Positions 7,556 to 61,744 of a DNA stretch of 64,000 bases are shown here, piece by piece. The notes beneath the pieces were generated by a model. It saw only the letters and a program-made list of their open reading frames with translations. It did not search any database and had not been told where the DNA came from. How positions within the stretch are numbered: the first letter of the stretch is position 1; each line of letters opens with the position of its first letter. This DNA is from Leucoraja erinacea. Taxonomy: Eukaryota. The DNA is taken from the NCBI RefSeq assembly GCF_028641065.1, contig NC_073381.1:77624001-77688000 (forward strand). Reading direction: 5' to 3'. Position numbers and translations under genes: made by a program.

Positions 7556-10500
7556 TAAAACAATCTCAGTTTTTGGGACACATGAATGCTTGTTTCATTT
7601 AGTAACTTTCAGTAGTCTAAATATATAGCGGTAATATACCAGTAACAGTGAAGAGGGTCCCAACCCGAAACATCACCCATCCTTTATCTCCAGGTGCTGC
7701 CTGACCCATTGAGTTACTCCAGAGGACTGTTAAAAGGTGAATCACAGAAAGGATGGATGCCAGGCAAGGGTAAATTGGGGAAGGTTAATGGAGGCAGATT
7801 TGAGGATGGGTTTTAAGAGTAGGGAGTATTGAAGCAAGAATTTCATACTATAGTTGGAGGTGAAAGGGGAACAATCATCAGCCTTTGCGATGAATTAGTT
7901 TGTTTAGGTTTGAATTGAAGAATCTATTCATTATTGAGTTTGGGTGAAATAGGAAGAGGTAAACAATGGCGTAAGCATTCAGCTTTCCTTCCACCACCCT
8001 CAACTGTCCGCACCACAATACCAGGGTGTCATTTCATCCTGAGACGGGGGAACGTTAGAATTAGTGAATGTGATACATTGTTCTTGGGTACCAAGCTTGA
8101 TGTTGCGTAACAGGCAGGGTCTGCAGATTGTGAGATATGTAGTTGAAGTTGGAGAAGGGTGAAGTGTTTAAAGGTGTGCATGGCATAGGTTAGAGTTCAC
8201 TACTGATATTCACTACTAACCTGAGATTCACCTCAAGAAACACATGCACTGCCCCTGATTTACTCTTTGCACCCATGACTGTGTGGCCAAGCATGGCTCC
8301 AATTTATATATTCAACAATGACACCACTGTTGATGCTGAATCGTGGATGGTGATAGGTCAGCATGCAGGAGATAGAATACTTGGGTTGAGCGGTGCTGCA
8401 ACAACCTCTCGTTCAATATCAATAAAACCAAAAAATATTCAGTAAAGGAAAATCAGGAGACCACATGCTTTTTTTTATCGGTAAGAGGTGAAAATAATGG
8501 ATGTAATCACGGAGAAGGATCACCTGTGCCTCTACTTTATTAAAAGTTTTTAGAGATTCAGCATTTCACTGAATATTCCAGCAAACCCTCTCCACATGCA
8601 CTGCTGAAAGTATCCTGACTGGTAGCACCATGGCCTGCTACGGCAATTCCAAGGGGCTGCAGAAGGTGGTGGACTCAAGACTGGTCTATCAGATACAACC
8701 AACCCCACCATCTGAGGCTCAGCCTCAAGGAGGCAACATTTTATCATCATGGATCTCCACCATATGCACAATCTGCTCTTATCGCTCCTGCCATTAGACA
8801 GGAGTTACGTAAGCCATAGATAAGCTAGTACGACATCATCGGGTTCAGGAACAGCTACTTTCCTATAAGCAACCGCCTCTTGAATTGACCTGCACAACCA
8901 ATGGTTACAATGATACTTTAGTGATTATTTGTATACAGTTCAGTACAAGTGTCACTATACAAAAGCACGTAGATCCCTCACCCTACCTCAGCAACGGATC
9001 ACCTCATGCATTACCAGACTTTCTTTTAATTGTTTTACACTAATAGTTTTTTTCCCTTTATAAGTCATACAGCACAGAAACAGGTCCGTCAGCCCAACTC
9101 ACCCATTATGAACAATATGCACCCATCTATGACCTAAATCCCTCTAATCCTTTTCTATCCATTAATTGTTCAAATGAACAATTGCAGTATTGCCAGGAAT
9201 TATTATAAAAAGTGAGCACTGACCAGCCCGTCACAGGCAGACCCCCTCACCATTGAAGAAATTTGTAAGAGGCACTGCACTCCTCCCATCAGGAAGAGTC
9301 CGAAACCTGTAACGTCCACGCTCAGGAACAGCTTCTTCCCAACCACCAGTCTTATCAATTACGACAAATTCCAACTAAACCAAGAACAGCTTTGATTGGA
9401 CTAGGGACTTCAGGTTTTGCACTATATTGTGTTTTTATCTATTTTTTTTGTTTGTTTTTAATATATTATATATCAAGCAGTTTTTACAAATCTGGTGTGC
9501 TGTAATTGTATTACAGGTATTCTCTTTTTGTTACATATGACAATAAAGTACTTAACATGATTTTTCAGGGTTATTGTACCTGCCTTTACTTTTCTTCTGG
9601 TAGCTCATTGCACATTCCCACTATGTGAGACAGTTTCAACTCTCACATTAAACCTATGCCCTCTAGTTCTTGATTCCACTACCTTGGGACTTTTCACCTT
9701 TATCTCTTCACCTCATTTTATACACCCTTTAAAAGATCACCCCTCAGTCCCTAGTGCTCCAGAAAATAGTCCTAGCCTCCTCAACCTCTCCCTATAGCTC
9801 ATAACCCCAAGTCATGCCAATATCCTCGTAAATCTTCCCTGCTCTTTCCAGCTTAATGACATCTTTCCTATAACAAGGTGGCCACAATTACTCTTTGTAA
9901 TTGTTTTGCATTAACGTCTTGTGCCTTTCTGCTTTTCACTACCTTGTATACAGCGCAAACAGGCCCTTCAGCCCAAACTAAGCCCTCAGCCAGAAACAAA
10001 CCCAATACTTCTAGTGCAGGTATACAAAAGTTTTTCACTATATCATATGACTAATACCAATTCTGCAAGTGGTGTTTTGATAAGCTTTGCAAAGGTCAGA
10101 ATGTCTTCAAAAGTGAACAACAATCTCCAAAACATGAAAATACAACTGACATATCTCCCTTTTCTCCCCCGCTGCTTGTAGATAGTTTACATCCAATTGT
10201 TATTAGAATGTGGAAAATAGGTATATACTCAACTTTGAAAATTCAGCTGTGAAGAGAAACAAGTTGTGGGTACAGTGCTGTAAATCACCAGATGGTGGCA
10301 ATAATCTACAAGCAGCATTGCTCACGCAATACCAGTGACCCTGCAATAATGAAGGATTCTTTCAACGTAATTTTTTTAACCAGTGCAGACAGCAAACAGA
10401 AAAGCCAGGAATAGTTTCAACTTCTCCAGTTGAATCTTTTGAAATGAGTATCTTGGATTTGAAATAAGTTTGTTTTTGGTTAAAATCGATTAAATGCTCT

Positions 10501-13367: not shown

Positions 13368-15502
13368 CTAGAGTTTTGTTTAGGCACTAAAAATCTTTGA
13401 AATAGGCAGGCAAAAAGCATATCACAAAAAATACATTTATTGGCAAAAAAGACATGTATTTCCACCACCAAAGCATGGTTAAAAATGATAATATAAAGGT
13501 ATACTACATTAAATGACCAAAGTTGCCTGGTATCACATAATTACTAGCATTTTTTTCAAATTACCTGATGTTATACTATGCCTTCTGTCAGACAGAATAT
13601 GCTTCGGTTGTGAGAAACCTTTTTCTACCTCAGTCTAGGTCACTGGTGCATACCCATAACAAGCTACAGACTCTATATTCATGTCGATATCTTGTGCATT
13701 ACAACTACCTTTGAGAACTTTAGCTATGTTTTGTATTTCTTCAAGATCTTTGTTAGCTAAAATCACTCTCTCACATTTTCCTTGCATGTCTTCCTATCGC
13801 CAGGAATTTTATGAATATCTTCAGTTATTTTGTTGAAAACCTGAAAGTTATTCACTAATGTTTCGCAACATTTCTCAAATGATAGCTTGTGGGAAGTTTG
13901 CAAAATTAGAAGCAATAAACACAACATCGCGATGGAGGAACGTTTTCTGCATTGTTTCACTGACGATCCTGACTGCAGCAGATTCTTCTTCTTCAAAACA
14001 GTTGACGATTTCTTTTATCTTTTCAAAATTTGCAGCATAGTAGAGTACAGCAGAGAGCCATGTCCCCCACATAGTCAAAACAGGCTGATGAGGTAGCAGA
14101 ATCTCAGGTATCATTTCCTTGAACAACTGCACACATGACGGTGCTTTGAGGAAGATTTTCTTGACATTGGAAACTAGGCGCTCGACATTGGGAAACAAGC
14201 TATAATGTGCTTGGCAATTCTATGACGTCCTTGAGCTAAGCATGTCAAATACGGCATTTTGGGGAATAAAAGTTTAAGAGCCCGTGTGGCTTTTTTCATG
14301 TACGGAGCTGCATCAGTCACAAACAGAAGAACACTCTTGTGTTTTATACCGTCTGGCCAAAGTACAGCAAGTGAAGATGTAAACAACCGAGCAATAGTTT
14401 AGCTGTGTGACTTCTCCAATACTTCCGATGTCAACAAACACACCTTTGATGGTTGACCTGCCTCCATTGTACCGATGACCTCATTGGCAACATATCTCCC
14501 CACAGGTAGACAAAAATGCTGGAGAAACTCAGCAGGTGCAGCAGCATCTATGCAGTCTACCTTCGATTTTCCAGCATCTGCAGTTCCTTGTTAAATATCT
14601 CCCCACAGTATCGGTTGTCTCGTCTATTGAGATCCATATTTTGTTGCATGCAACTTGATCTCTAATTTTCTGCACGACAATGTTGAAGTGGCTGTCAGCA
14701 TAATTTTTCCATAATGTTGACTCGCTTAGTATAAGTTCCTCTGTGTATTTCTCTAAAAAACCTCTGAGAGATTTGTTTTCCAATTTCCACCGTGGAATTC
14801 CAGCATCAATGAATGCCTTGCACAGATCACTCGAAAACTCAGATTTCTGACTGGAGCCAACAATAAATGTAGTGAGGACCCAAGCTTTGGTATTTGGCTT
14901 GGGTAGTTTACACCCCAGCGATATCAACATTGATTTCTAATTTTAGATATCCCTTGTCTTCTCATTCCTCCCCCTCACCCTTCCCAGCTCTCCTTCTAGT
15001 CCTACTACTGTCTTCACTTCTTCCTTTCTTTTTCCTGCCCCCCCCTTTACATCAGTCTGAAGAAGGGTCTCGACCCGAAATGTCGCCTATGCTCTCCATA
15101 GATGCTGTCTCACCCGCTGAGTTTCTCCAGCATTTTTTGTCTACCTTCGATTTTTCCAGCATCTGCAGTTCTTTCTTAAATAGATCTTGGAGAAGACTGA
15201 ACTAGCGGGCAGCGGCATGAACGAATGAATGACCGATGGTGGCACCCCGGATTTTGCCCCTGTGGTGGAAATTGTCTTGTAACTTATACCATGTTAACAC
15301 ATAATAATAATAATTTATTAATATTAACGTTAACATAGAAAACGTCACTTTCACAATACAACTAGAGAAAATAGCACGACCTTTTAGCAAAACGGCAAAA
15401 AAAAGCTGATTTATGCACTCAATTGTGAAAAAGGCATTATCCTGGTGAAATCATCAAAAAAGGGCATGAAAAGGCACATGGCATTTATGGCAAAATCCTG
15501 GC
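13368..15502 (-). mobile_element. Degenerate hAT-superfamily transposon (CGGBP1/DUF659-like transposase) nested in the Tc1
   Basis: ORF pieces IWISIDETTD, LLFVTDAAPYMKKA, TCLAQGRHRIA and PVLTMWGTWL. Flanked by the direct repeat GAGTTATGA (13359-13367, 15503-15511). Confidence 0.8.
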
Positions 15503-17171
15503 GAGTTATGAGGCATTTGTTTGAACTTGAGCAGATAGGATGTGTCTATACACTTCAGAATTCATTATGCTACTACCATCAACAGTTGTATCATCAATGA
15601 AGATAAGTGAGCCAGTACCTTCAGCAGCCATACATGCCCCGGCCATAACACCCCCACCACCGTGTTTCACAGATGAGGTGGTATGCTTTGGATCTTGGGC
15701 AGTTCCTTCTCTCCTCCATACTTTGCTCTTGCCATCACTCTGATATGTCAATCTTCGTCTCATCTGTCCACAAGACCCTTTTCCAGAACTGTGGTTGCTC
15801 TTTTAAGTACTTCTTGGCAAGCTGTAACTTGTTTGTGATCTGTCGGACAGGTGTTTGGGGATTTTTCTTTATTAAAGTGAGAATTCTTCTGTCATCAGCT
15901 GTATAGGTCTTCCTTGGCCTGCCAGTCCCTTTGCGATTAGTAAGCTCACCAGTGCTCTCTTTCTTCTTAATGATTTTCCAAACAGTTAATTTTGGTAGGC
16001 CTAAGGTTTGGCTGATGTCTCTCTAACAGTTTTATTTTTGTTTCTCAGTCTCATAATGGCTTCTTTGACTTTCATTGGCACAACTTCAGTCCTCATGTTG
16101 ATAAACAGCAATAAAAGTTTCCAAAGGTGCTGAGAGCTCTCTTTTATCTGCATTAAGGAGGCAATTAAATACACCTGAGCAATTACAAAGACTTGTGAAG
16201 CCATGTGTCCCAAACAATATGGTGCCCTGAAATATGGGGGGGGGGGCGACGACGCTATGTATAAACACAGCTGTAATTTCTACATGGTGAAACCAAAATG
16301 TATAAAAATGGCCTTTAATAAAATCTGACAATATGCACTTTAACCGCATGTGATTTTTTTTCTATTACAAATCTCAAATTGTGGAGTACAGAGGCAAATT
16401 AATAAATAATGGGTCGTTGTCCCAAACATTATGGAGGGCACTGACAGTATCTAGACGAGCACTTCAAGTGGCAGAGCATACAAAGCTGCAGACCAAATGT
16501 AAGTAACTGGGACTATTATAAGGACATTAACCGTCAAGGAAACGGCAGGCTGAGGGACTTGCTTCTGTTACACAACCAGAACTTAATTCTAGACTTTATT
16601 GTTTTGTGCAAAAGCCACAACGTAGCAGATGTGTTTAGAATTAAATTACCTTAACATTCACAATCTTAAATCCTGTTAATTTGGCCAAGATTTCAACGAG
16701 GCAATGTCGCATCTTGACAATATCAGATTTGACCTAGCAAATTACTGAATTCACTGACATCAAATGCAATTCTAGCCATATCCCAAAAATATGGTCTCTG
16801 GCTATTCAATCAGAGGACCTCACAATAACCTGATACACTAATCCCGTCAGCAGTATTCAGGAACGGAGGACCTTCCTTTCCTTATACCCAGACCAATTGG
16901 TGAAATGTGTAGGGAGAAACTGCAGATGCGGGTTTAAGCTGAAGACAGATACAAAAGGCTGGAGTAACCCAGCGTTTCGAGTCAAGGCACGTATGAAGAA
17001 GGGTCTCGCCCCGAACCGTCACATATTCCTTTTCTCCACAGATGATGCCTGACCCGCTGAGTTACTCCAGCCTTTTAAGTCGGTCTCCAATTGGTCAAAT
17101 GCCATTTTTCACAGATCAGCGCATAAAATATGAGCCAAATAATGATACCAACAGTTTTTAGTAACTTATTA

Positions 17172-17351
<180 letters not shown>

Positions 17352-17470
17352 TTAAGGTGAACTTGCCTTCTAGCTTACCTTAAGCATTAAGGCGAGCGAG
17401 AATCTTAACCGTGCCAATAATATTCAGTATTATACGCCAAATCTAATACTGTATCTCCGACGTTTAGGCA

Positions 17471-17531
17471 ATAATTCAGGCAATTTTCTTCATTCGATTC
17501 AGTAGAGGGAGCCAATTGATCATCATTGATA
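17471..17531 (-). ncRNA. SNORD100: C/D box snoRNA SNORD100 (18S rRNA 2'-O-methylation guide)
   Basis: Minus strand reads ATGATGA-tcaatt-GGCTCCCTCT-a-CTGA(D')-atcga-ATGAAGA(C')-aaattgc-CTGA. The guide is complementary to 18S AGAGGGAGCC. Located in RPS12 intron 4. Confidence 0.9.
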
Positions 17532-18322
17532 AAGTACAACATTCAGGATATATAGTTCACTCAGAAATCGTCAAATATCTGTGCATCTCAATTTTTATTC
17601 TCTAGGAAATGACAGTGGAATAGTCTCAGTTATAGGATTTGCATATGTCCCATCTCCAAGGTCCTTAATTGACTAACAAATATGTGGTGTCATCATCTAC
17701 TTAACTTTCCCCAATCCAGGGACACTGTGGTCACAATGTCCCTAGCCTCCATATGTCTGATAAATTGAACAGATCTGAAGTTAAACACAAGATTATTCAA
17801 ATGAGGGGATCAGCCACTGGATGGCACAACTGGCTCAATCACAAGAAGCGTTTAAGTCTCCAATTGCTATTCCTATACTCAGAATGCTAACCTGCAGCTA
17901 AATGCAAATGGCCAAGATGGGTGTAAGTTTAGTGTATTGGCATAACCTTTAACCAGTGTATAAAGGAAGCTGGGTGGCCTGGTCTACATTTCTGTGCAGT
18001 AAGAGGAATAAATATGGCAGGGATAGAAAAATACACTCACCATTTTGGTTTAGGTTTGGATTATGACAAAATATTATAGAATTCAGCCTTAGAAGTGCAA
18101 GACCGATCTCATTACAACGTAGTTATGGAAAAAGAAAATGCAAACTCAAATGTTTGTTTAAGATAGTTAAGACTAGTTTAGTAGTCTAGTAATTATAATC
18201 ATTCACATGCCTCATCTTTTAAATAATAAAAAGAAAGCAATGGTGCACAAGTTGAATCCAAGATAAAATAGCCAATGACAACATTGGCATGGATCTTTAT
18301 TCAATCCATTATTTGTGCTCAC

Positions 18323-18425
18323 CTTAATCAGGTTGATTTGATGTTCAGCACAGAGTGCCTCCACCAACTTAACATATTGGGCCTCATCACAGTTGCTTGC
18401 CAGAACACACAAGTGGGCTTGCCGT
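18323..18425 (-). CDS. RPS12: RPS12 exon (K)[34 protein letters not shown]
   Basis: 103 nt, cttag| acceptor and |gtgagc donor; overlaps ORF-track hit 18212-18412. Confidence 0.97.
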
Positions 18426-18799
18426 CTAAGGGTTGAGAAGGGAGAAACAAATCGTAAAACTTTTACACCAACATCATCCAGGACACACCTCAGCTCTACC
18501 CTTTATACTTATGTGGATCAATTGAAGAATCAAAGACAAATCAAAGGACAAAGAACATTTATTGTGATATCCACCAATTGGTGCAGTGAAATTTGAGTTA
18601 CCATGCAGCAACCAAATAACATAAACATAACACTTTAGAATTTAACATAAAACACAAAAAACACCCCCCCACAGGGCTCCGCGTTGTTAAAGTCAGCGCT
18701 GCCCGGCGGCTGGAAAATCAAGAGCCGCCAGCGGCTGGAGGCTCCGCTGACCACAGCTCCACGGTGTCAAAGTCAGCAGTCTCAGCACTCCGGAGCTCC

Positions 18800-19092
18800 A
18801 ACAGTGGAACAACTCCGCAGTGGAATCCAGTGCTGCGTTGGTGGTGGACTTTCGGAGGAGAGGAACACCCCTGTCCCTAACAATGGTGTGGATGTGCAGT
18901 TTACCAGGGAGTTCTAAATACCTTGGAGTGTACCTGGACAGTAAACTGGACTGGTCCAGGAACGCTGAGGCCCTGTACAAGAAGGAACAGAGCCGGCGAT
19001 ACTTTTTGAGAAGGCTCTGATCCTTCAACATCTGTGACTGTTGGCAGATCAATTTTCCTCCTGGGATGAATAAAGTTCTATCATATCGTATG
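18800..19092 (+). mobile_element. Rex1/Babar-type LINE fragment
   Basis: KYLGVYLDSKLDWSRNAEALYKKEQSRRYFLRRL, followed by an aataaagttctatc tail. Confidence 0.7.
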
Positions 19093-19380
19093 CTACATAT
19101 TATCTTCATTAGATGGCACTATTGTTCAAATAACAATCGGCAAACTTGTATTTTAAGTTCATACCCTATTTAAGGCCAGATAATTTAACAATTACACCAG
19201 GTGTGAATTTCAACAATTAAGTAAGAACAAGGCTTATTTTGCTTTTTACTAGATTTTTGTAAACCCTAGACAATTTTAAAGTTGCACTACATCACATTCT
19301 CCTCATAGTTCATTTAATTACATGCTATATTTATTGCAGTTGATCAATTATGGTAACTCATGAAATTGACAATAACTCAC

Positions 19381-19497
19381 TTATCCAGCACTTTGGCAGC
19401 TTCCCGGAGACCACAACACAGGCCATCGTGGATGTATGCTGTTTTCAGCACCTCCTGAAGTGCAGTGTTGACATCCATGACCCCTCCTGCGGCTATG
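19381..19497 (-). CDS. RPS12: RPS12 exon (C)[38 protein letters not shown](K)
   Basis: 117 nt, cgtag| acceptor and |gtgagt donor; phases fit the neighbouring exons. Confidence 0.96.
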
Positions 19498-19586
19498 CTA
19501 CGAAGTTGGAGGAAATAATAATGAAATTTGGTTATTTACCATAGCAAAGCTATTATCATTTAAGAACGCAACAGCAGAGCCACAAA

Positions 19587-19660
19587 GTTGTCAGCAAATT
19601 TCTTTCACTCATTGTCAAGAGTGAAGGGGTATCCGACATTAGAAAATTCATCACTTCAAC
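19587..19660 (-). ncRNA. SNORD101: C/D box snoRNA SNORD101 (U101)
   Basis: Minus strand reads GTTG-aa-GTGATGA...TGTCGGATACCCCTTCACTC...TGAGTGAAA...CTGA-CAAC: box C, box D, terminal stem and the recalled SNORD101 core. About 90 nt upstream of an RPS12 acceptor; RPS12 is the known host gene. Confidence 0.9.
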
Positions 19661-20121
19661 AATGCAGCTTATATATCATTGCAAAATGACTGTAGGTTCT
19701 GGAAGATAAACTTTTAGTAAGCAAATATTTTGGAAACTGAGGGTCTCAGTTTGTTCAAGTAAGACAGCACTACCACAATACAGATTATGCAATAAAAAAT
19801 TACCATGTTATCAATTCTTGTATTATACCAGAATTATATATTGTATTGTAACTATATTCAAAATGCAACCAGTCAAAATAACTTGTTAGTAATTGGGATA
19901 CCAAGCATTAAGTACAAAAAAACTGCATGCCATGGGATGGGGCATCCTTCTTTCCACAACCACATGAATACCTCTACAAAACATATCCAGCTGCAGGAAT
20001 TAAACCTAAAGAACCAGCCCCCACTTGAACGCTCTACCAACCCCAAAACATCCCAACACTGGCATCAATGCGGCCACGGTGGCACAGCGGTAGAGCGCTG
20101 CCTTACAGCGCTTGTAGCGCC

Positions 20122-20768
20122 GAAGAACCAGGTTCATCAAGAAGGCTCAGCAGCGGCTGCACTTCCTGAGGGTCCTCAGGAAGCACAACCTGGACTCTAA
20201 CCTGCTGCTGACCTTCTACCGCTCGTCCATCGAGAGCCTGCTGACATACTGCATTACAGCATGGTATGGCAGCTGCACCATGGCAGACAGGGAGAGGCTT
20301 CAGAGGGTAACCAGGACAGCGCAGAGGATCATTGGTTGCCCTCTCCCCTCCCTGATGGACATCTACACCTCCCGCTGCCTTAGCAGGGCAAAGAAGATCA
20401 CCAAAGACAGCTCCCATCCTGCGTTTGGACTGTTCGACCTGCTGCCCTCTGGAAGGCGCTATAGGTGCATCAAATCCAGGACAAACAGACTCAGGAATAG
20501 CTGCTTCCCGAGAATTATATCTACCATAAATTCAAATCACACACATGCACTGACTACACCGCCCAACACGGACTTCCATCTGTATATATGTATATATGTA
20601 TGTAGCGCCGTAGAATTTGTGCACCTATTCCCCCCCCCCATCTCCCTTCTGTTTTGTTTTTCTGTTTCTTGTTTTTTGTGTAAAATTGTATGTATGCACT
20701 GAGTACGAGCAGCTTTCAGTTTCACTGTACATGTATAGTGACAATAAATGGCATATCTATCTATCAAT
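20122..20768 (+). mobile_element. Rex1/Babar-type LINE 3' end inserted in a V-SINE
   Basis: RLQRVTRTAQRIIGCPLP...LLPSGRRYR..RTNRLRNS frame; aataaa plus (tcta)n tail. Confidence 0.8.
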
Positions 20769-22659: not shown

Positions 22660-22741
22660 GACGCGGCGCCGCTAGACGCACGCATGACGCAACGACGCTA
22701 ACACGTCCACACCACCCGCCTGACGCGTCAGATCACCTGCC

Positions 22742-22897
22742 TGACGCAAAGTCCTCACCCGCCCGACGCAATGACGCAAAGTCCTCACCCGCCCGACGCA
22801 ACGACGCAAAGTCCAGATCACCCGCCCGACGCAATGACGCAAAGTCCTCACCCGCCCGACGCAATGACGCAAAGTCCAGATCACCCGCCCGATGCAA
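22742..22897. repeat. Minisatellite, 5 units of 30/33 bp (TGACGCAAAGTCC[AGA]TCACCCGCCCGACGCAA)
   Basis: Units start at 22742, 22772, 22802, 22835 and 22865. Confidence 0.95.
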
Positions 22898-23872
22898 AGT
22901 CGAGACCAAAGATTAGGAGCAAAGATCTTACAGCAGAAATCTTTCATCTGAAGCACATTTTTTCTTCTTTTTTTGACAAATTACACACTCTTGACTCATG
23001 ACCACCCAATCTCCACCCCCCCCCCGTCTTCGGTGTATCTGCTCCTTCCATTTTCTGCAGAAACACGTAAGAGGGGAGGAAAAAGGGAGATTGGGTGATC
23101 ACGAGTCAAGAAAGTTTAATTGTCAAAAAAAGAAACACTGTAATTCCTTATTTATTTCTATCACAGGAGCAGCTCCGCGGGTCGGGCAGCATTTCTGGAG
23201 AACATGAATAGGTGACATTTCAGGTCGGGAGCCTTCTTCAGACCCTGTGTTTAAGTCTGAAGAAGGGTTTCGGCCCGAAACGTTGCCTATTTCCTTCGCT
23301 CCATAGATGCTGCTGCACCCGCTGAGTTTCTCCAGCTTTTCTGTGTAACCTTCTTCAGACCCTTATGTATTGTCTGCCAACGCTGGTGCAAGTGGTTTGG
23401 TCGCCGCACTGGGGAGTCCAGACTCGCACTGTGCGTGTGGCGAGTAAGATGTTGCAATCGGGAGCGTGTTTGGTGTATTGTGAATCAGCCCGCTCTGTTC
23501 CCCAAAGATCCGCTATAGTTGTTGTTCCCGGCTTTGAATTAGTGCAATTGTGTAAGAGTTCTTCCGGTGTCTTCATTGCCTCGAGTCCTTTCACTGCGGC
23601 AGGTTTGATATGGTGGTCAAAGGTGCATTAGCAAGGACGAAGGGAGGGTGTGCCGGAGGAATATTATATCGCCCGGTCATAAACCCGGCCTGTGATATAT
23701 ATTGACCGTGCGCCGGGCGAGGTGTCTCTGGCGAAAGTGACAGGACAGGCTCGGACTCCCGGCGGAGAGAGGCTGCAGCGGCCGCGGGCTCAGACTGCCC
23801 GCTCCGGGCCAAGGCTCCAGCAGCTGGAGGGCTGAGATCTGTCCCCGGCACCGGCACCGGCCCGCCGTCACC

Positions 23873-23894
23873 ATGACCACTCCAGAAGTCACAG
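23873..23894 (+). CDS. SLC18B1: SLC18B1 (MFS vesicular polyamine transporter) coding exon 1, MTTPEVT(D)
   Basis: Kozak-like gccgtcaccATG, donor ACAG|gtaatt, phase 1 fits exon 2. The N-terminus itself is poorly conserved. Confidence 0.75.
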
Positions 23895-24379: not shown

Positions 24380-24425
24380 ATGAACTTAACAGCTAATTTC
24401 TCTCATTTCAGGTAGCCCGGCATTC

Positions 24426-24466
<41 letters not shown>

Positions 24467-24965
24467 CTCCTCCACCCAAGTTACACTAGCTTCTTATTTT
24501 CACCAATGGCTTGTTCCCTTTGTCATTGTTACTTTTTTTGCGTATCTTTCATTCATTGTTCTTTATCTCTCCACATCACCGTCTATATCTCTCGTTTCCT
24601 CATCCCTAACCAGTCTAAAGAAGGGTCTCCACCCAAAATGTCACCCATTCCTTCTCTCCAGAGATGCTGCCTGGCCGGCTGAGTTACTCCAGCTTTTTGT
24701 GTCTATCTTCAGTTCTGCAGTTCCTTCTTACACACAGCTAATTTCTTGCAACCGCAAGGGATGCTACACTTGTCGCTTTACCTCCCCCCTTGACTCCATT
24801 CAAGGACCCAAACAGTCGTTCCAGGTGCGACAGAGGTTCACCTGCATCTCCTCCAACCTCATCTATTGCATCCACTGCTCTAGATGTCAGCTGATCTACA
24901 TCGGTGAGACCAAGTGTAGGCTTGGCGATCATTTTGCCGAACACCTCCGCTCGGTCCGAAACAGC
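24380..24965 (+). mobile_element. Penelope-like element: pLTR plus GIY-YIG endonuclease fragment
   Basis: CNRKGCYTC...FTCISSNLIYCIHCSRCQLIYIGETKCRLGDHFAEHLRSV is the PLE GIY-YIG signature; the adjacent terminal repeat is shared with many short copies in the window. Confidence 0.85.
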
Positions 24966-25385: not shown

Positions 25386-25969
25386 GTAATTAACATTTTG
25401 ATGGTAATTTAAAAAACATTTTTTTAAATCCCTCTTCATTATTTTTTTAGTGAATCCTGAACTTTGAGTTAGGTTGTTCAAATGTTGTTGAGTGACTAGG
25501 CTCAATAGGTTTCACAATATTGGGATATTGCACTCATTGTTAATAAGTAAACTGTTGTTGCTGATAAACCCATTCTTATTTCAGGAATTATTCTGGTGCA
25601 TCTTTGTGGCATTCCCTCTCCCACAAGTACATAGAGATGTACAGCACAGAAATAGGCCCTTTGGCTCACCAGGTCCATCTCAACCTCTTTGGCCTGCATA
25701 AGTGGTCCGATGGATATTTGAGTCTGAAGAATGGTCCCAACTTGAAATGTCACCTATCCATGTTCTCCAGAGATGCTGCCTAACTTGCTGAGTTACTCCA
25801 GCACTTTGTCTTTTTTTGATCCTGTGGATCATATTGCCAAAGAGTATCAATGAAGATGGGCAGAGGTGGGATGAGGTTTCACAGTTAAATTACAAATACT
25901 TCTTAGCAACAATGAGTTTATTAATGATCATGTGTTATGGATTTGTTCTCTTTTGTACTCTCTTTGCAG

Positions 25970-26065: not shown

Positions 26066-26388
26066 GTAAGTATAATATTAATGTTACATTGAATTAATGC
26101 ATATTGGATCTAGAGTTTTTATTTAACTTTTCTTGTGTTTTGTTTTATAATATTCTTGTTTGAATGTTAGAATGATGATACTCCTTTACCAAAGTTTTTT
26201 CAATTAGTGAATATCTGCTATTATTTATTTTACTACTTGATCTGTCCATCGAAATAGTTATATTTTAAACATTGGTGGAAAAAAAACAAGAAATTACTTG
26301 CCTTATTTCCTCATAACTTTGCTTTATTTCATGCTATCATTAAGGAAGCAGTATAAGTACATTTCGACAAAACAACAATAAGCTAAAG

Positions 26389-26780
26389 TCTGAGGAAGGA
26401 GGCTCGACTGGCAATGTCAACTATTCCTTTTCTCAGAGATGCTGCCTGATCTGTTGAGTTACTCCAGCATTTTGTGACTATCAACAATAAACAAAAGATA
26501 GACACAAAATACTGGAGTAACTCAGCAGGACAGGCAGCATCTCTGGAGAGAAGGAATGGGTGACGTTTCGGGTCGTGACCCTTCTTCAGGTTGAGAGTCA
26601 GGGGAGAGGGAGATGCATAAGGAAGGGTAAGATGTGAAAGCAAGACATCAAAACCGATGGGGATCAAGGAAAATGCAGAATAGATCATTGTTAGCAAGGA
26701 GAAGGTGACGACAAAGCAATCAGCGATCAAATGTAATCGGGGACAGACAGGTTGGTCGGAGAACTGGGAAAAGGGAGGGA
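26389..26780. mobile_element. Inverted pair of Penelope pLTR-derived elements
   Basis: Plus-strand arm 26389-26480 and minus-strand arm 26495-26780 of the same repeat. Confidence 0.75.
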
Positions 26781-27209
26781 AACTGAAGCCTATTGAATCC
26801 CATGAGGGTCATTGACCCAGAAAGTATGAGAAATTGTTATATGAAGAGTTTCACTGAATCTTTTGAAGAGTTTGTATATTAAGGATTTTTTAAAACAGTG
26901 TTTGATACAAATGCTGCATCCCCTGCACCACTAGGGGTCTATACATCAGTATAGGACACATGTAGACACAAAGTGCTGGAGTAGCCAGTCAGGCAGCATC
27001 CCTGGAGAACATGCAGAGGTGATGGTTCGGATTTGCCTTCATTGGCAACGCAAATGTGGCCCATAACATTTTCTCTATCTCAGTGGCTGAGGTATATCTC
27101 TCAGACAATGGCAGACCAACTTGCCCTAGTATCAAAGCACAAACTTGTTGTTGGTTCATCTTGCAAGAAGGTGACCCTGTATACAACATCCATATCATCC
27201 TCTATGACA

Positions 27210-33833: not shown

Positions 33834-34540
33834 GATTAAAGTCTCTACATGATCCTCGATCACAAACTCTCACCTCTCAGGATCGGATGCATTTTCTCTC
33901 CCCTATGTCAGCAATTTCCTTCTAAAAAAGATACAAAGTGCTGTAGTAACTTAGCAGGTCAGACAGGATCCCTGGAAAACATGAATAAATGTCATTCGGG
34001 GTCAGGAAGAAGGGGCCCGACCTGAAATGCCACCTATCCGTGTTCTCCAGGAATGCTGCATGACCCGCTGAGTTACTCGCTTCATGATGTGAACAGTAGA
34101 ATTACAGCTGTAACCAAATGGAATGAGTTGATGTGCATGAAGTAAATCTTTAAAACCATATATAAAGAGAACTAAAGTGAATAGGTTTAAGGTGAAGGGG
34201 AAAAGATTTAATAGGATCTGAGGGGTAATGTTTTTGCACAAAGGCTGCCAGAGGAGTTAGTTGAGGTCTGGACTATCCTAACATCTAAGTAACAGTTAGA
34301 GAGGTACATGGAAAGGATAGGTTTGGAGGGATATGGGCCAAATGCAGGCAGATAGGACGACTGTAGCTGGGACATGTTGGCTGGTGTGGGCAAGTTGGGC
34401 CGAAGGACCTGTTTTCACACTGTCTCACTCTATGACTGAAGGCAGTGTAAATGTTTGCAATGCTTACCTGTCAAATAACATGGTAAAACATTTAGCATTC
34501 CTTTCTTGAAGTTGATACCAGTTTTTATTTCCCTTTTCAG

Positions 34541-36024: not shown

Positions 36025-37850
36025 ATATAACCATATAACCATATAACAATTACAGCACGGAAACAGGCCATCTCGACCCTTCTAGTCCGTGCCGAACACA
36101 TATTCTCCCCTAGTCCCATATACCTGCGCTCAGACCATAACCCTCCATTCCCTTCCCATCCATATAACTATCCAATTTATTTTTAAATGATAAAAACAAA
36201 CCTGCCTCCACCACCTTCACTGGAAGCTCATTCCACACAGCTACCACTCTCTGAGTAAAGAAGTTCCCCCTCATGTTACCCCTAAACTTCTGTCCCTTAA
36301 TTCTCAAGTCATGTCCCCTTGTTTGAATCTTCCCTACTCTCAGTGGGAAAAGCTTTTCCACGTCAACTCTGTCTATCCCTCTCATCATTTTAAAAACCTC
36401 TATCAAGTCCCCCCTTAACCTTCTGCGCTCCAAAGAATAAAGCCCTAACTTGTTCAACCTTTCTCTGTAACTTAGTTGCTGAAACCCAGGCAACATTCTA
36501 GTAAATCTCCTCTGTACTCTCTCTATTTTGTTGACATCCTTCCTATAATTAGGCGACCAAAATTGTACACCATACTCCAGAATTGGCCTCACCAATGCCT
36601 TGTACAATTTTAACATTACATCCCAACTTCTATACTCAATGCTCTGATTTATAAAGGCCAGCACACCAAAAGCTTTCTTTACCACCCTATCTACATGAGA
36701 TTCCACTTTCAGGGAACTGTGCACAGTTATTCCCAGATCCCTCTGTTCACCTACATTCTTCAATTCCCTACCATTTACCATGTACGTCCTATTTTGATTT
36801 GTCCTGCCAAGATGTAGCACCTCACACTTATCAGCATTAAACTCCATCTGCCATCTTTCAGCCCACTCTTCCAACTGGCATAAATCTCTCTGTAGACTTT
36901 GAAACTCTACTTCATTACCCGCAACCCCACCTATCTTAGTATCATCTGCATACTTACTAATCCAATTTACCACACCATCATCCAGATCATTGATGTACAT
37001 GACAAACAACAGTGGACCCAACACAGATCCCTGTGGCACCCCACTCGTCACTGGCCTCCAACCTGACAAACAACCATCCACCATTACTCTCTGGCATCTC
37101 CCATTCAGCCACTGTTGAATCCATCTTGCTACTCCACCATTAATACCCAACCATTGAACCTTCTTAACCAACCTTCCATGAGGAACCTTGTCAAAGGCCT
37201 TACTGAAGTCCATATATACACAACATCCACTGCTTTACCCTCATCAATTTCCCGAGTAACATCTTCAAAAAATTCAAGAAGATTAGTTAAACATGACCTT
37301 CCAGGCACAAATCCATGTTGACTGTTCCTAATCAGACCCTGTTTATCCAGATGCTTATATATATTATCTCTAAGTATTCTTTCCATTAATTTGCCCACCA
37401 CTGACGTCAAACTAACAGGTCTATAATTGCTAGGTTTACTCTTAGACCCCTTTTTAAACAATGGAACAACATACGCAGTACGCCAATCCTCCGGCACTAT
37501 TCCCGTTTCTAATGACATTTGAAATATTTCTGCCATAGCCCCTGCTATTTCTACACTAACTTCCCTCAATGTTCTAGGGAATATCCTGTCCGGACCTGGA
37601 GACTTATCCACTTTTATATTTCTCAAAAGTGTCAGTACTTCCTCTTCTTTGATCCTCATAGTTTCCATAGCTACTCTACTTGTTTCCCTTACCTCACATA
37701 ATTCAATATCCTTCTCCTTGGTGAATACCGAAGAAAAGAAAATGTTCAATATCTCCCCCATCTCTTTTGGCTCTGCAGATAGTTGTCCACTCTGACTCTC
37801 TAATGGACCAATTTTATCCCTCGTTATCCTTTTGCTATTAATATAGCGGT
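36025..37850 (-). mobile_element. Young 5'-truncated CR1 LINE with an almost intact RT ORF, inserted in a V-SINE
   Basis: ORFs 37129-37911 and 36110-37213 ([30 protein letters not shown]) joined by one frameshift; TSD agtacc at 36019-36024 and 37851-37856. Confidence 0.95.
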
Positions 37851-38809
37851 AGTACCCGGAGAAAACCCACGTGGTCACAGGGAGAACATGCAAAGTCCAC
37901 ACAGGCAGCACCCATGGTCAGGATCGAACCTGGGTCTCTGGCGCTGTGAAACAACAACTCTACCGTTGCACCGTTATATTTCCCTAGCTGGATGAATTTC
38001 TGGGTGCCACTTAACAGAAGGGTGGATAGCCAGTTGATTAGGAACCAGCTGTTGTACTACTTTATGCGAAGAAAGAGTACATAGTTGCAGAAAAAATGGG
38101 AGGGGAGAAGTTTCAGAAGCCGTATCAATGAACCAAATCGAGGAAAACTAGAACTAATATGTTGGCAAGTATAGGTGGACCCCGAGTTACGAATGGGTTT
38201 CATTCCTGAGAAGTATCCGTCAGCTGATTTCTCTATAAATACAACCACTTTCTATTTAAGAAGGAACTGCAGATGCTGGAAAATCAAAGGTAGACAAAAG
38301 TAGTCTGAAGAAGGGTTTCGGTCCGAAAAGTTGCCTATTTCCTTCGCTCCATAGATGCTGCTGCACCCACTGAGTTTCTCCAGCACTTTTGTCAACCACT
38401 TTCTATAGTAACCAACATACACTTGCATTAGTTATTTTGTTACAATGTATAATCTCCATAACTCAATCCCATAATTAAACTAAGGGGATATATCCAATCA
38501 TTAATTAATATAATGAAACATTTTATTATTCTCGTTATTATCTTGTAAAATGCTTTCAAACTTTATGGGAGAATTTGCGTAAAGTTGTATTTTGATAAGT
38601 CAGGTCATTTGTAATCATGTTACATCCTGTTTAAACAGAGATTTCTGAAGAAGGTTTGTGTTCATAAATTCAAAAGTTATAGGTGCAGAATTAGGCCATT
38701 TGGCCCGTCAAGTCTACGTGTACAAACTCTACTTGTAACAAAGTACAAATGCTGTAATTTTCAAGAATGGATGTGATCTAATAATGTAGCGGGTGTTCTT
38801 GCTTTTCAG

Positions 38810-41423: not shown

Positions 41424-43167
41424 GTAAGTATTGGCTTTGGCTTATTTCATTATAAAGATTTAAATTCACAAATACAGATCTTTTTACCTGTTGTGATAAA
41501 CTTCCCTTTTTTTATTCAACTGATTTTTGTCGGCGTTCAAGAAAATCTAATAATCTTGGTATAGAAATAAAAATGTAAATGTCATAACTTCAGTTCACGA
41601 TTGCAGATGGTGTTTAAAAAAAAAAAAAAAAAAAGCTGCAGTCAGTGACCTGTCATACCTGTCTTAACAGTAAGCTAGGATTTGGAAGTTTGCAAGATTT
41701 GTTCTGGTATTCCTGGATGTTCAGGTTGTGCATTTTGAAATGGTCTGCTTGCTTGGGTCCTGCCACAGGCAAATGTGGTCACAATCAACAAACTATAAAT
41801 GAATGGAAAGTTTCCTCTCGCCTGTCTTCAGCTGTAAACATTATGACTCATCTATGTTTTCCAGTGTAACTGTGAAGATGTGCTGTTTTGCCATCACATT
41901 TCAATTGATAACCTTGGGGTTAGTTTAAAAAAAATAAAAGATAGTACCTTTCATGACTCTGAATGTATTGAAGTGTTTTATAGCTAACATCGTACTTTAC
42001 AATTATAGTCTCTGTTGTACAACCCACACCATTTAGATTATAGAAAATATTATATATTTGGTGCAAGGTCTTCATAAGTGATAGGAGCAGAATTAGTCTG
42101 TTCGGCCCATCAAGGCTACTCCGCCATTTATAAGATTATAAGATCATGTGATAGGAACAGAATTAGGCCATTCCACCCATCAAGTCTACTCTGCCATTCA
42201 ATCATGGCTTTCCTTTCCCTCTCAACTCCATTCTCATGCCTTCTCCCCATAACCTCTGACACCTGTACTTATCAAGAATCTATCTACAGTATCTATGCCT
42301 TAAAAATATCCATCGACTTGGCCTCTTTGATCCTAAAGTAAAGTATATTAGCCGGGTTAGTGAGTGTGCTAATGAATGGGAGGGAATGAAGTTGGCTGCG
42401 GAACCCTTGTGAAGCAGCTAAAAATAATTAAAAAGTCAAACTCCTGGAATTTCTGAAACCTTGAACCTAAAATACAAATAAAGTGAACCATTTCCTGTAA
42501 ATCATCACCTGTAAAGAAATATGTTCATATTTTTATTGAAAGGTATTTTTAAATTATTTTCAGCTGGATGGCACGTCACCAAAGTGTTTTTAATATTGAT
42601 TAATTGTAAAGGATTTATTATTTCTCTGGCATGTCTTTTTCCGACAAAACGGCTTAAACCTGCTTGTGCTTTTTACAGTCTGCATATTAGGCTGATCTCA
42701 GATACCAACCACGTAGCACAAAAACGTAAATAATCTCAAAAAAAGACAGTGCGCTGGAATAACTCAGCAAGTCAGGCAGCATCTCTGCATGGATAGGTGA
42801 TGTTTTGTGTTGGCACTCTTCTTAAGACACATTCTCTTGACCTGTCCACATTCCCCTGAGATGCTGCCTGACCTGCTAAATTTCTCCAACACTTTGTCTT
42901 TTCTTTGTATAAACCAGCGTCTGCAGTTCCTTGTACCTCAAATAATCTCACTTTGATTTACAAACCATCTTCCACCCAGCAGCATTATTGTTGGTAAGGG
43001 CTTTACAATTGTTTCCTAGTGTCTTTGCCCCTCTGGTTAACCTGGAATGATCATTTTTGGTGCCTTAAAGTGTAGTAGTGTAGAAAATTACACCTTTCGT
43101 TGCACAGTTCATTCAAATGGGTATTGTTGATTTGACAATACAAATTAGATTGTAATTTAGTGATTGA

Positions 43168-43640: not shown

Positions 43641-44028
43641 TCCTACTTCAATACTTAGACACAAGGAACTACAGATCTTGGTTTACCATAAAATACACCA
43701 AGTGCTGGAGTAACTTAGATGATCCGGCAGTATCTATGGAGAACATGGATAGGCAGCATTTAGATTCTGTAGAAGGGTCCTGACCCGAAACATCACCTGT
43801 GCATGTCCTCCACAGATGCTCCCTGACATTCTGAGTTACTTCCGCACTTTGTGTCTTTTTTACTTTAATACTGTAGCTTTCAATACCATCACCAAAGCAT
43901 ATAAAGAACAGGGGGGGATGTTGATTTCCTGAAAATCTAATGATGCAATCTAGAATGCAATCCCAAACTGGACTTGATAATTCTCATTTTGCTGTCTTTT
44001 TTTCCTTTTCTCTTTTCCTCAATTCCAG

Positions 44029-44120: not shown

Positions 44121-46404
44121 GTAGGTATCTTAATAGTTTTGTTTTATTCATCACACTGTTGGGAATGTGTTGTTGCGAGTGGTGAAGCAGTGGCTTTTGG
44201 TCTTCATCATCTATTAAGTTGCCCACTGAAGTTTGGCAAGCCTGCCACCTGTATGATTCCAGCATGTCAGGGGCATATGCATCGCATCACGGGAGAGACA
44301 TTACATTTTATACAGCCATGAGAATGCTTGAGAAACATTTAAAGTTCAGGGCTAGGAAGCTTTCTCAGCAAACATCTGACATACGACATAATTAGTCCTA
44401 CAAAATGTTAATTTTCCACCTGTCCGTTGAATGACAATTAGCTCAAGATTATGTCACAACATTGAATGTGAGGTTTGCAACAAACAGGCTTTGCAGAGGC
44501 AAAATATTATTATTAGCAAAATGAGGATTACTGTACATGATTTTTAATGTGGAGACTCATGTGGTATTGCAAATTTTATGTTGCAATAAAGGTGATCACC
44601 AGCAACACACCATTGTCGGGATTAGCAGAAACTGGATCATTGTGCAATGATGTGGAATATAATACCTGAAACAATGGTGGAATGGGGGGGGAGGGTGGTT
44701 AACACCAAATTTCAAAATTAAATCGGACAAAAATTTGAAGGGAGAAAAAAACGAGGAACAGTGAGAAAGAGTAAGGGAGTGGGCTAATTGGATAGCTCCC
44801 AACGTGAAAGAATGATACTCGAATGATAATTTATTGTCAAATGTACCTAGGTACAGTGAAATTCCTTGTTTGAATACAATATACAAGTATGCAAAGAGTC
44901 GCCATGTATAGGGCACCGACAAATATGGCATATGCCAGCTAGTTTCTCGTGTGTATTCAGATTAGCCAAATAAAGACTTCGTCATAGAATCATAGTCATA
45001 GATTCATACAGTGTGGGAACAGGCCCTTCAGGCCAACTTGCCCACACCGGACAACATGTCCCAGCTACATTAGTCCCATCTGCCTGCACTTAGTCCATAT
45101 CCCTCCAAACTTGTCCTATCCATGTACTTGTCCGAGTACACGCCGATCAGTAATTCCCCGCACACTAACTCTACCCAACACACACTTGGAACAATTTTAC
45201 ATTAATACCAAGCCAATTAACCTACAAACCTGTACGTCATTGGAGTGTGGGAGGAAACCTGAGCCGGGGGAAACCCATGCAGATCATGGGGAGAACGTAC
45301 AAACACCGTACAGACAGCACCAATAGTCAGGATCGAACCCGGGTCTCTGCCCCACCATGCCAAATGGAAACATTTGATTCCAGAAAGGAAAAGACTAGGA
45401 AAGGGAGAAATAACAGAGATTGTAAATGATTATTTTGGAACAAGAGACAAAAGAACATCCTAACAATAATGGGTAATCAGGGAAGGGAGGAACCTAGAAT
45501 AACAATCCATCATTGGAGAAAAAGTGCCAACCAAGCTAATGGGATTGAAAGCTAATTACATGCCGTGAAGCTCTTGTCCAAAATTTTGGCTCTTACAGGA
45601 TGTGGCTGCAGAGATATTGGATGCATCGGTTGTGTTGAGCATTCAAAGAACCTTTTAAGGAATGTAGATAAAAAAGTGTGGGAAGGAACTGCAGAAGCTG
45701 GTTTACACCAAAGATAGACTCAAAATGCTTGAGTAACTCAGCGGGTCAAGCAACATCGCTGAAGAAAAGGACTAGGTGAGGTTTTGGTTCGAAACCCTTC
45801 TACAGATTAAGAGTCAATTAATTTATATTTTGTATCGGGGGCCCTTCCGTAGAACTGGGGGAAGAGAAGAGTCAGTCCCTGGAAATATCAACTCCAGATA
45901 TAAGTTTTTTTTTTTTTGGCCTTCCATCACAGCAATGTGATGGATGTTTATGTAAAATGTAAATCATGTTGTGTCTGGGGTCTATTTGTTGTAATGTATG
46001 GCTGCAGAAACAGCATTTCGTTTGGACCTCAAGGGGTCCAAATGACATTTAAATTGACTCTTGACAGATAGCTGAGTAGACAAAATAACGAAATATATTC
46101 AAGGCAGAAATTTGAACTGCAAAGTGTCAAAGAGTATGGGGAGAAAATGGGAGAATGGTGCTGAAGACAAGATTGGGTCAATCTTGATCTAATTGAATGG
46201 CAGAGGAGAGTGTAGCGGCTGATTGTCCCGATGGTTGTGCTCCTGTTTCTTATGGTTTGTTAGCTGAATAGAAGCAAAGAACACAGTATTCTAACAGCAT
46301 TTATAATTCTTTGCCTATGCTTGCAATAATTTGGGTTGGAGTGTGACAACAACTGGTTCAATTAATATCTTTCTAATGATTTATCTTGTTTCTTTTGCCT
46401 ACAG

Positions 46405-46500: not shown

Positions 46501-47007
46501 GTAAGTACGAACATAATTTTTAATATTTGTCTGCTGAGGAGAGTTTTGTATATTTTTCTTTGTGAAGGCATGAGCTTACATCATGCATATGGAATATGCA
46601 TGAAGGCATCTGGAAGGATCCATATGCCTTCATCCAAATCTTTTTTCCCAATTTCATAATCGTTTAATATAATTATAATGAAATAATAGGCGGAGAATTG
46701 TAATGGTTCCAAACGGACTTTGTTTCAAGTTCTCACTGGACTTTCTTTATAGGAAATTAGAAATAAGATTTTGCTACTTGTTCCAACTATGGCCCTAAAA
46801 TTTCATGTTTTAATCTGACTAAATGGTCTGATTATTGATTCATGGGATTTTGCCACATTCAAAATTCAGCGTATAATTTTCCATAACTGAAAATTGCCTT
46901 ACCTTTAGAAGTTGTGGCTGTTTATTAAATTGTCTTTTACAGTCCTCCAAGCCAATATCCACGCTGTGGTAAATCCTTAGGTTTAAAGTCAGCATTAAAT
47001 GTTTTTA

Positions 47008-47268
47008 CCGAAGATGGACACAAAATGCTGGAGTAACTCAGCGGGACAGGCAGCATCTCTGGAGAGAAGGAGTGGGTGACTTTTCGGGTAGAGACCCTTC
47101 TTCAGTCGGTTTAAACCAGCATCTGCAGTTCATCAGACCGAAGAAGGGTCTCAACCCGAAACATCACCCATTCCTTCTCTCCAGAGATGCTGCCTGCCCC
47201 GCTGAGTTACTTCAGCTTTTTGTGTCTATCTTCGGTTTAAACCAGCATCTGCAGTTCCTTCCTACACA
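47008..47268. mobile_element. Palindromic pair of Penelope pLTR-derived elements
   Basis: 47008-47107 is the reverse complement of 47135-47235, with a few mismatches. Confidence 0.85.
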
Positions 47269-53152: not shown

Positions 53153-53212
53153 ATAAATGTGAGGTTATCCACTTTGATGGCAAGAACAAGAAGGCAGATT
53201 ATTATCTGAATG

Positions 53213-61405: not shown

Positions 61406-61744
61406 CTTTGTCTGTCTGTTTAAGAATGCTGATGCTGGAAAAATCCAGGTAGACAAAAATGCTGGAGAAACTCAGCGGGTGAGGCAGCATCAATGGAGTG
61501 AAGGAATAGATGACGTTTCAGGTCGAGACCCTTCATCATGGTGACGTTTCGGGTCGAGTCCCTTATGAAGAAATTCTCATTGAAGAAATTTAAACATTTC
61601 ATGAAAATGCTTGGTAATGCAAACAGTGTATATAATCAATTTCAACCAATTCCGTACATACAGGCAACTGCAGACGATGGATCTTGCATAGATCATCAGG
61701 TGCTGGAGTAACTCAGCGGGTCAGGCAACATCTCTGGAGGACAT

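Follow-up and report, generated by a model that had tools for sequence, protein, structure and literature searches.

The hammerhead-bearing repeats dispersed through the 64-kb stretch of Leucoraja erinacea DNA analysed here (the window) are end-pieces, for the most part decayed, of a Neptune-type Penelope-like element (PLE), and were probably made by internal priming and run-off from uncleaved RNA. Their shared motif, CTGAAGA-A-GGGTC-nn-GACCC-GAAACGTC, is present with no mismatch at 26562-26589(-), with one at 15057-15084(+) and 49467-49494(-), and with three at 23257-23284(+). A first-pass annotation had named these four as the cleanest copies, and the sequence is indeed present at each position, although 15057 has ATGT in place of ACGT and 26562 is without helix I (its first pair is C.A). 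Across the 64 kb, 12 matches to the motif were found at up to three mismatches, compared to 0 in 100 dinucleotide shuffles, and a general minimal hammerhead (min-HHR) pattern gave six exact matches, compared to 0 in 100 shuffles. Profile searching yielded 38 matches (0 in the reversed window), and an extended profile yielded 43 matches, which represent 29 insertion units and of which 42 were aligned. The core is covered in 25 copies, or one per 2.6 kb, in agreement with the high density first estimated (about one per 3 kb), and all 17 positions first listed as degenerate were recovered to within a few bases. Instead of forming tandem arrays, the copies are dispersed or inverted; they comprise at least three sequence subfamilies in addition to an older CTGATGC type. 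At the gathering score, Rfam reported no hammerhead in the whole window; its sole match was SNORD101, which lies in an RPS12 intron at 19587-19660(-) (54.7 bits).

The endonuclease (EN) sequences beside the repeats point to a PLE. Searches with shark and invertebrate PLE proteins (tblastn) matched 24747-24965(+) and 53457-53829(-), which supports both of the GIY-YIG fragments reported in the first pass, while Pfam GIY-YIG alone scored 24747-24965(+) below its cut-off (E 0.025). A CX2-5CxxC linker precedes the YIG motif in both window fragments and in all 18 homologues of at least 700 aa (CX4CxxC, of Neptune/Nematis type, at 24747-24965), and four of the six full-length homologues scanned matched both reverse transcriptase (RT) and GIY-YIG. 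This linker marks Neptune and Nematis (PMC8557442). The source element reads, from its sequence, as a Neptune-type PLE, and Nematis would be compatible with the linker too. The PLE RT content of the window is one short remnant at 54808-54951(-).

Four long copies of the repeat are ordered EN stop, 3' UTR, motif and tail, and EN C-terminal codons lie upstream in four of the five long copies (weakly in one). The best map of the element's 3' end is 53214-53830(-), which contains a broken GIY-YIG with CX4CxxC linker, a stop, approximately 100 nt of pyrimidine-rich UTR, the motif at 53314-53341 (G12 lost), and a tail with sites near 53252 and 53217. At 14891-15180(+), antisense in the last RPS12 intron, EN C-terminal codons and UTR precede the motif (C15.2 changed) and a long tail; at 24402-24733(+), the last EN codons and stop, UTR, a decayed motif and a long tail lie within a 13-bp target duplication (24389 and 24734); and 26488-26830(-) is a 5'-truncated long copy with EN C-terminal codons (weak, by eye), pyrimidine-rich UTR, motif and short tail. 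A UTR end and decayed motif at 62192-62248(-) have lost their tail. The abutment of the repeat on GIY-YIG fragments had first been taken to tie it to Penelope; the link to PLEs stands, whereas the copy near 24615 inserted independently and has a 13-bp target duplication of its own; it is linked to PLEs by the EN stop codons that lie upstream of it.

At related PLE loci, the distance from the EN end to the min-HHR is 102-131 nt: counted from the EN match, it is 130-131 nt at four loci and approximately 100 nt in a 13-copy family over 11 loci. The 15 related loci (L003-L017) come from host-contaminated genome bins; they are animal retroelement DNA in three GTDB bacterial genome bins, and the origin of 13 of the 15 in a single bin points to host contamination. 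Among them, L005-L010 and L013-L017 (e.g., L005:2615 and L013:3438) form a young Neptune-type family with copies 90-99% identical, in which the hammerhead core has U4 changed to C (CCGA) in 11 of 13 copies, the other two being further damaged, and in which CCAAT and TATA stand 63 and 39 nt upstream of the motif, respectively. The window-type min-HHR pattern had no match in viral contigs or in genome contigs, and a PLE protein search of viral contigs found none among 82 candidates. With a loop one base longer, the pattern matched two overlapping metagenome loci (L001/L002), a different min-HHR; at L001:1937-2130 it has a 5-bp helix I and a 5-bp stem II, and is joined head-to-head, approximately 9 nt before the core, to an inverted PLE endonuclease C-terminus.

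The ends of the copies gather mostly at one 5' edge and two 3' sites. A start near (A)GT|CTGA was observed in 21 of the 26 copies holding the 5' core, which places it about 30 nt upstream of the cleavage site. When all 42 aligned matches are considered, 21 start at -12 to +6 of C3, five run into UTR, 13 start elsewhere, and three have their start no more than 3 nt from the cleavage site (+29); 22 end at +72 to +103, 17 at +118 to +131, and three elsewhere. Target duplications of at least 9 nt (9-14) flank eight of 29 units, compared to 14 of 806 mismatched-flank controls, and a wider-range search added two more (overall range 9-15 bp), with only 0-10 extra nt between duplication and core. The traits of canonical EN+ PLE insertions (5' truncation, an inverted 5' copy and a tail at one end) were all observed.

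Individual short units illustrate this pattern. The unit at 49402-49496(-) runs from GT|CTGA and has an intact core, a 3-bp stem II and a 2-bp helix I, that at 2121-2200(+) runs from the first core position within a 10-bp duplication, and that at 23247-23348(+) has an intact core with a GUU site. The last of these is nested in the head of an older copy (23164-23243, -) with a 15-bp duplication at 23232 and 23349, so that the 23164/23257 pair is a nested insertion and not a head-to-head unit; this nested insertion (23164-23363) sits between RPS12 and the MFS transporter gene described below, in their divergent promoter region. A unit of the older CTGATGC type at 54662-54773(-) runs from C3, has an 8-bp duplication, and adjoins PLE RT (54808-54951, -) and inverted EN (55004-55377, +) remnants. 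Together, the nesting at 23164-23363 and the placement of 54662-54773 beside PLE remnants hint at homing into the element's own sequence. Decayed short units were identified at 7649-7722(+), 25719-25813(+), 45676-45812(-; long tail, decayed core), 47333-47430(-; from +5), and 26387-26483(+), the last lying tail-to-tail with the 26562 copy and absent from the first-pass list. At 61416-61568(-), a short unit has a 31-nt tandem repeat of the motif (61512-61570) ahead of it, with both cores broken.

The same ends recur in related organisms. Three contig sets (X18, X17 and X20) and one RNA run (X23) were aligned to 53150-53830 at 80% likeness, and 178,000-197,000 contigs per set match, although neither the contig counts nor the depths amount to copy numbers, and both favour the letters of the reference copy. 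Among the matches listed, loose ends with unrelated flanks (agreement 0.31-0.33) lie at 53343-53344 in X18, X17 and X23, with none there in X20; the 5' edge is seen as contig loose ends in two of the three related genomes, in one of them through a diverged copy. Also among the matches listed, all four runs have loose ends at 53251-53254, and X23 has them at 53217 too. The loose end listed first, at 53346, belongs to another UTR subfamily, and those at 53302 and 53320 belong to diverged subfamilies.

Short copies outnumber long ones by 21 to 5, a count in which a copy with unknown UTR would look short because the scoring profile was built from eight window copies. It is possible, if unlikely, that the ~90-130-nt unit is a SINE-like, self-propagating, non-autonomous element that uses PLE protein in trans and owes its edge to a few masters with internal promoters. 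Beyond the excess of short copies, such an origin would suit the ACCTATCCATG subfamily, which is without a long copy in the window yet abundant in related genomes (loose ends at 53302, among the matches listed), and there are precedents in the internal promoter of Drosophila virilis Penelope (PMC2377424) and in known non-autonomous PLE derivatives (PMC8557442). However, the edge is common to at least three subfamilies as well as the older CTGATGC type, the ACCCATTCC type occurs in both long and short copies, and no discrete element RNA was seen in the portion of X23 that was read. A tree of the copies, which holds 24 of the 42 rows (18 were too short), has no starred branch and cannot show intermixing of short and long copies.

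X23 is a single polyA run from another organism, of which approximately 6% was read. Within that portion, 21,383 of 7.3 million reads match, 97% of these run on into unlike sequence, and depth over the motif is equal in both mate directions, in a library whose strandedness is not established. Given these two features, the reads are best regarded as passengers. In the same portion of this one run, no place was found where many molecules begin or end, and no transcription start was observed.

Nine head-to-head units were identified in the window, five of them inside one target duplication; eight of the nine pair a long-tail arm with a short-tail arm, and eight have an arm at the fixed 5' edge. 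The duplicated units are 47006-47266 (two full heads separated by an extra tail piece; 13 bp), 42739-42939 (a long-tail arm from exactly cleavage site +1; 11 bp), 38256-38392 (an inverted tail-only arm and a full short unit; 14 bp), 16902-17086 (in the last RPS12 intron; 9 bp) and 14506-14594 (tail arms only, without motif; 14 bp). Decayed units lie at 3457-3661 (a search for a duplication found none), 33922-34078 (both tails short), 43661-43858 and 59790-59993 (in a CASP8AP2 intron). All four opposite-strand joints among the matches listed from related genomes have one arm at 53344-53346. The structure of 38256-38392 and 14506-14594 was observed again at L003:2128-2174, where a PLE insertion has, at its 5' end, an inverted arm consisting of tail only. 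The geometry is like that of L1 twin-priming inversions, which are head-to-head inside one target duplication; the window arms differ in that they often overlap in sequence, which needs two templates or template re-use. Each inverted pair carries one sense motif on each strand, and the inverted units are predicted to fold as long hairpins (62-80% paired). A-to-I editing of these hairpins was considered and rejected: A>G and T>C are raised in the RNA, but C>T and G>A are raised too.

In the account that we favour, the element's own protein would nick DNA at the target, and reverse transcription would prime at one of two internal 'tail' sites and run off the 5' end of uncleaved RNA, an end that would lie 2-3 nt upstream of the ribozyme core. 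Both strands would be nicked and extended, which would yield the inverted arms. A copy holding both sides of the cleavage site must have come from RNA that was uncut there, or re-ligated, and the shared start just before the motif suggests copying from RNA that had not cut itself. We infer the internal priming at two sites and the nicking and extension of both strands from work on an Anolis PLE (PMC11167929); the two 3' classes, one-sided tails and inverted arms fit that model by analogy. In that system, the Poseidon (PAc) protein nicks and extends both strands in vitro, reverse transcription starts at two internal sites bounding the tail, and the RNA that it mainly uses is uncleaved (Frangieh et al. 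2024; PMC11167929).

The simplest reading of the shared 5' edge is that it is the 5' end of the RNA. That it also marks the transcription start is inferred and is the weakest step of the account. In its favour, YCAGT stands before the core in four of the five long copies, whose UTRs are otherwise different; however, the preceding tract is 70-92% pyrimidine, and YCAG|T in such a setting would serve just as well as a splice acceptor, the arrangement known from D. virilis (PMC4209133). Also in its favour is a single observation from one related family, in which 12 of 13 copies have TATA at -39/-37 and CCAAT at -63/-64; against it, no TATAWA was found upstream in the five long window copies, L003 or L004. 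The start site of D. virilis Penelope, a further point in favour, lies in the pseudo-LTR, with an internal promoter (PMC2377424).

The edge could alternatively be a stop of reverse transcription on a longer RNA, at a re-formed hairpin or at the adjacent splice-acceptor-like site, which we regard as improbable. The acceptor-like sequence and the D. virilis PLE intron that ends at helix I (PMC4209133) agree with such a stop, as does the best predicted fold of all six window copies folded, in which the core/stem-II region pairs with bases 3' of the cleavage site. That fold, however, is no stabler than shuffles (z -0.46 to 0.60), so that a specially stable 'off' hairpin was rejected, and spliced templates should bring a common upstream exon, whereas the flanks are unrelated and only those 0-10 extra nt precede the core.

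Run-off from uncleaved RNA may be extended to the whole genome, as a tentative conjecture: skates may carry approximately 10^5-10^6 'strong-stop'-like Penelope cDNAs, from an RNA that starts at helix I; the protein would prime within the first 130 nt of this RNA and integrate the short product, often twice, inverted, at one staggered cut. If so, the genome would be a large in vivo record of PLE transposition from uncleaved RNA, and the pseudo-LTR hammerhead would sit at the 5' edge of the transcript.

As judged from its sequence, the motif is a Penelope-like pseudo-LTR minimal type-I hammerhead with palindromic ACGU, as first proposed, an assignment with which both the upstream EN and the min-HHR pattern matches agree. 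A fully intact core with ACGT is present in three of the 25 copies. ACGT (palindromic 15.1-16.1, giving no helix III in the monomer) is the majority state and is intact in six of 25, and the pair G10.1-C11.1 is G-C in 18 and G-U in four of the 25. An extra A lies between 9 and 10.1 in 26 of 26 rows; it had been likened to the extra A of the CChMVd hammerhead, and is in fact standard in metazoan PLE min-HHRs (PMC4209133). Helix I is very short, as the first reading held (2-3 bp), with 2 bp (G-C, U-A) in five of the six copies checked and 0 bp at 26562. Stem II had been drawn with a 2-nt loop (TC, AC or CC); because a 2-nt hairpin loop is sterically impossible, the stem is instead 4 bp with a tetraloop. 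The copy at 26562-26589(-) retains an intact core, a 4-bp stem II and ACGU, has helix I broken at the first pair, and lies antisense to the pre-mRNA of an MFS transporter (SLC18B1-like). In the copies folded, the predicted probability of the first helix I pair is at most 0.016, and that of stem II is at most 0.25 in all six. The source element's ribozyme is predicted to cleave only as a dimer or with the element's protein.

Between PLE families, the core is fixed and six of seven pairs change on both sides (7 rows, 5 families); none of 500 shuffles attains the covariation score, and slid controls stay at or below 0.12, compared to 0.65. This result leans towards structure because the seven rows were hand-picked and partly selected for stems, the non-window rows having been found by pattern or by a stem-requiring scan. 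Stem covariation was found between PLE families only, and not among the window copies. Pairing had been thought to be kept by G-U substitutions, but the G-U changes are one-sided, and two-sided changes of stem-II pairs occur in none of the 25 copies.

Decay of the window copies is neutral. Among 23 that are near-complete, sites of the core outside CpG are off the majority in 20 of 228 cases, compared to 131 of 1026 non-diagnostic tail sites (p=0.11), and CpG sites are off in 29 of 92 cases in the core and stem III (31.5%), compared to 13 of 46 (28%) in the tail (p=0.84; 23 copies). When the five subfamily-diagnostic tail columns are left in, the figures are 8.8% for non-CpG core sites and 16.4% for the whole tail (p=0.003), and none of the seven subfamily-diagnostic columns lies in the core. 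Conservation of the core relative to the whole tail, together with the lack of a diagnostic core column, fits constraint on source elements and not on copies. At the level of copies, then, the core shows no conservation in excess of the remaining repeat sequence, and stem II does not covary, the outcome that the first-pass annotation had itself named as evidence against its ribozyme family. In the three related genomes, depth-weighted retention, which is biased by the reference copy, is 67-70% for G12, 65-70% for the loop CpG G and 83-87% for a non-CpG tail base.

The repeats had first been described as retrozyme-like, that is, as a family whose RNAs self-cleave as dimers, circularise and re-integrate. 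In retrozymes, every repeat of a tandem array carries a hammerhead, and the units are processed to monomers and circles (PMC7229834; bioRxiv 10.64898/2026.07.22.740005). A few observations fit, namely the intact cores (three of 25), the same-direction neighbours in related genomes (7-29 contigs per row among the matches listed, with spacer length not known), and the tandem retrozymes reported from one chondrichthyan genome (bioRxiv 10.64898/2026.07.22.740005). In the window, however, the copies are dispersed or inverted insertions with target duplications and a start upstream of the cleavage site; unit ends do not fall at that site; nowhere were two or more consecutive head-to-tail units found that each have a complete hammerhead, the nearest being the 31-nt doubling with both cores broken; and only the minimal motif was found, not a canonical hammerhead with helix III and loop-loop contacts. 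The inverted pairs carry their single sense motif per strand, and X23 shows no pile-up of RNA ends (one polyA run, which cannot show circles). The retrozyme reading is largely refuted for the window copies, and as an account of the repeats it appears very improbable.

Copies were first said to lie in the pre-mRNAs of all four genes. Introns of three genes do contain copies; Pfam scans and the Atlas identified no fourth gene at 1-11 kb, and the RPS12 motifs are antisense only. The exon at 62.4-64 kb has skate CASP8AP2 as its best protein match (89%), with exons on the minus strand down to 57804. RPS12, also on the minus strand, has Pfam matches at 17172-18502, and its last exon presumably lies near 11081, as placed by known RPS12 peptide motifs; a short GC-rich tandem repeat at 22700-22900(+) lies just upstream of its likely start. 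An MFS transporter gene on the plus strand has matches from 25928 to 49085, and we take it to be SLC18B1, with its start at 23873. Other mobile remains are presumed to be a helix-turn-helix fragment, likely of Tc1/mariner type, at 15738-16420(-), a likely DNA-transposase remnant at 13875-14936(-), long LINE RT ORFs at 36110-37917(-), and ALKBH8_N-matching LINE ends at 18751-20699(+).

None of the 11 copies sense to a mapped host gene is intact, compared to one of six antisense copies within mapped gene limits, numbers too small to call a bias of intact copies to the antisense strand. The effect on host pre-mRNAs implied by the first reading thus finds no intact sense-strand copy in the identified genes to act through. 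Co-option of some intronic copies by the host as cleaving or regulatory ribozymes has a parallel in the intronic hammerheads known in amniotes (PMC6155905) and would draw on the copies in introns of three genes; with no intact sense copy, with the intact 26562 copy antisense and without helix I, and with 49467 on the strand opposite to the MFS gene, it is extremely doubtful. We predict that the genomic copies ride in host transcripts as inert passengers. In one of them, 47138-47269(+), the frame from the core is open through the whole tail, and four predicted public-assembly proteins contain the peptide, apparently as an exonised repeat. An ORF starting inside the motif finds no support, since the peptide matches only short predicted proteins of the exonised-repeat kind and no PLE N-terminus.

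As a ribozyme finding, these repeats are ordinary: PLE minimal hammerheads have been published, and the window copies are mostly dead. The role of the PLE hammerhead and the origin of the tail and of inverted copies are standing questions, and the value of the window repeats is mechanistic. The only in vitro PLE system suggests uncleaved RNA as the template (PMC11167929), and many short, target-duplicated insertions with one 5' edge and two 3' ends make the uncleaved-template model testable by counting. They also carry a warning that hammerhead counts in skates and rays will be dominated by decayed passengers. A literature search, with subscription papers and Repbase/Dfam largely outside its scope, returned no skate or shark description and no head-to-head or twin-primed PLE units, which does not show that the unit is undescribed; in the portion of PMC6155905 consulted, sharks are mentioned for the name only.

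The closest known relatives of the motif are the min-HHRs of PLE pseudo-LTRs, with an extra base after A9, G10.1-C11.1 and a palindromic 15.2-16.2, which occur mostly as single copies with some opposite-strand pairs, and which do not cleave as monomers and cleave at a low level as dimers (Cervera and De la Pena 2014; PMC4209133). The window copies resemble them in CUGANGA, the extra base, a stem II with G10.1-C11.1, GAAA, the palindromic CG and UH, as well as in a site 3' of the EN ORF and in being mostly single and dispersed. They differ in helix I, which has no more than 2 bp in the window (G-C and U-A), compared to two G-C pairs in the published 2-bp examples. The published alignment (Fig. 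S3) lists teleosts, lamprey, coelacanth, frog, turtle and snake, with no cartilaginous fish in that list, and the window density (25 in 64 kb) would extrapolate far above the 9,000 reported for Xenopus (PMC4209133). A fixed 5' edge, present in the window copies, is not among the features described for min-HHRs in the sections of that paper considered here.

Animal non-LTR retrozymes, which are derived from PLE pseudo-LTRs (bioRxiv 10.64898/2026.07.22.740005), are like the window repeats in being non-coding and PLE-related, with a type-I hammerhead and long target duplications; they differ in being arranged head to tail, as tandems of 150-450 nt, in having canonical hammerheads and in giving rise to abundant circular RNA, whereas the window units are dispersed or inverted, minimal and decayed. 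Neptune PLEs share with the window a GIY-YIG with Cys linker, 5' truncation, an inverted 5' copy and a 30-40-bp tail at one end only, but are variably truncated, whereas the window holds mostly ~90-130-nt copies with one common 5' edge (PMC8557442). The hammerhead of the related loci L004-L017 is nearly identical to that of Acropora Neptune (PMC4209133, Fig. S3). The Anolis PAc hammerhead cleaves only with protein, and no RNA-seq reads are reported to end at its cleavage site (PMC11167929). PAc belongs to another clade and has its start codon at stem II, whereas the frame of window copy 47138 is open, without an ATG and without a full-length PLE protein match; the two are alike in a hammerhead followed by two 3' end sites that bound the tail.
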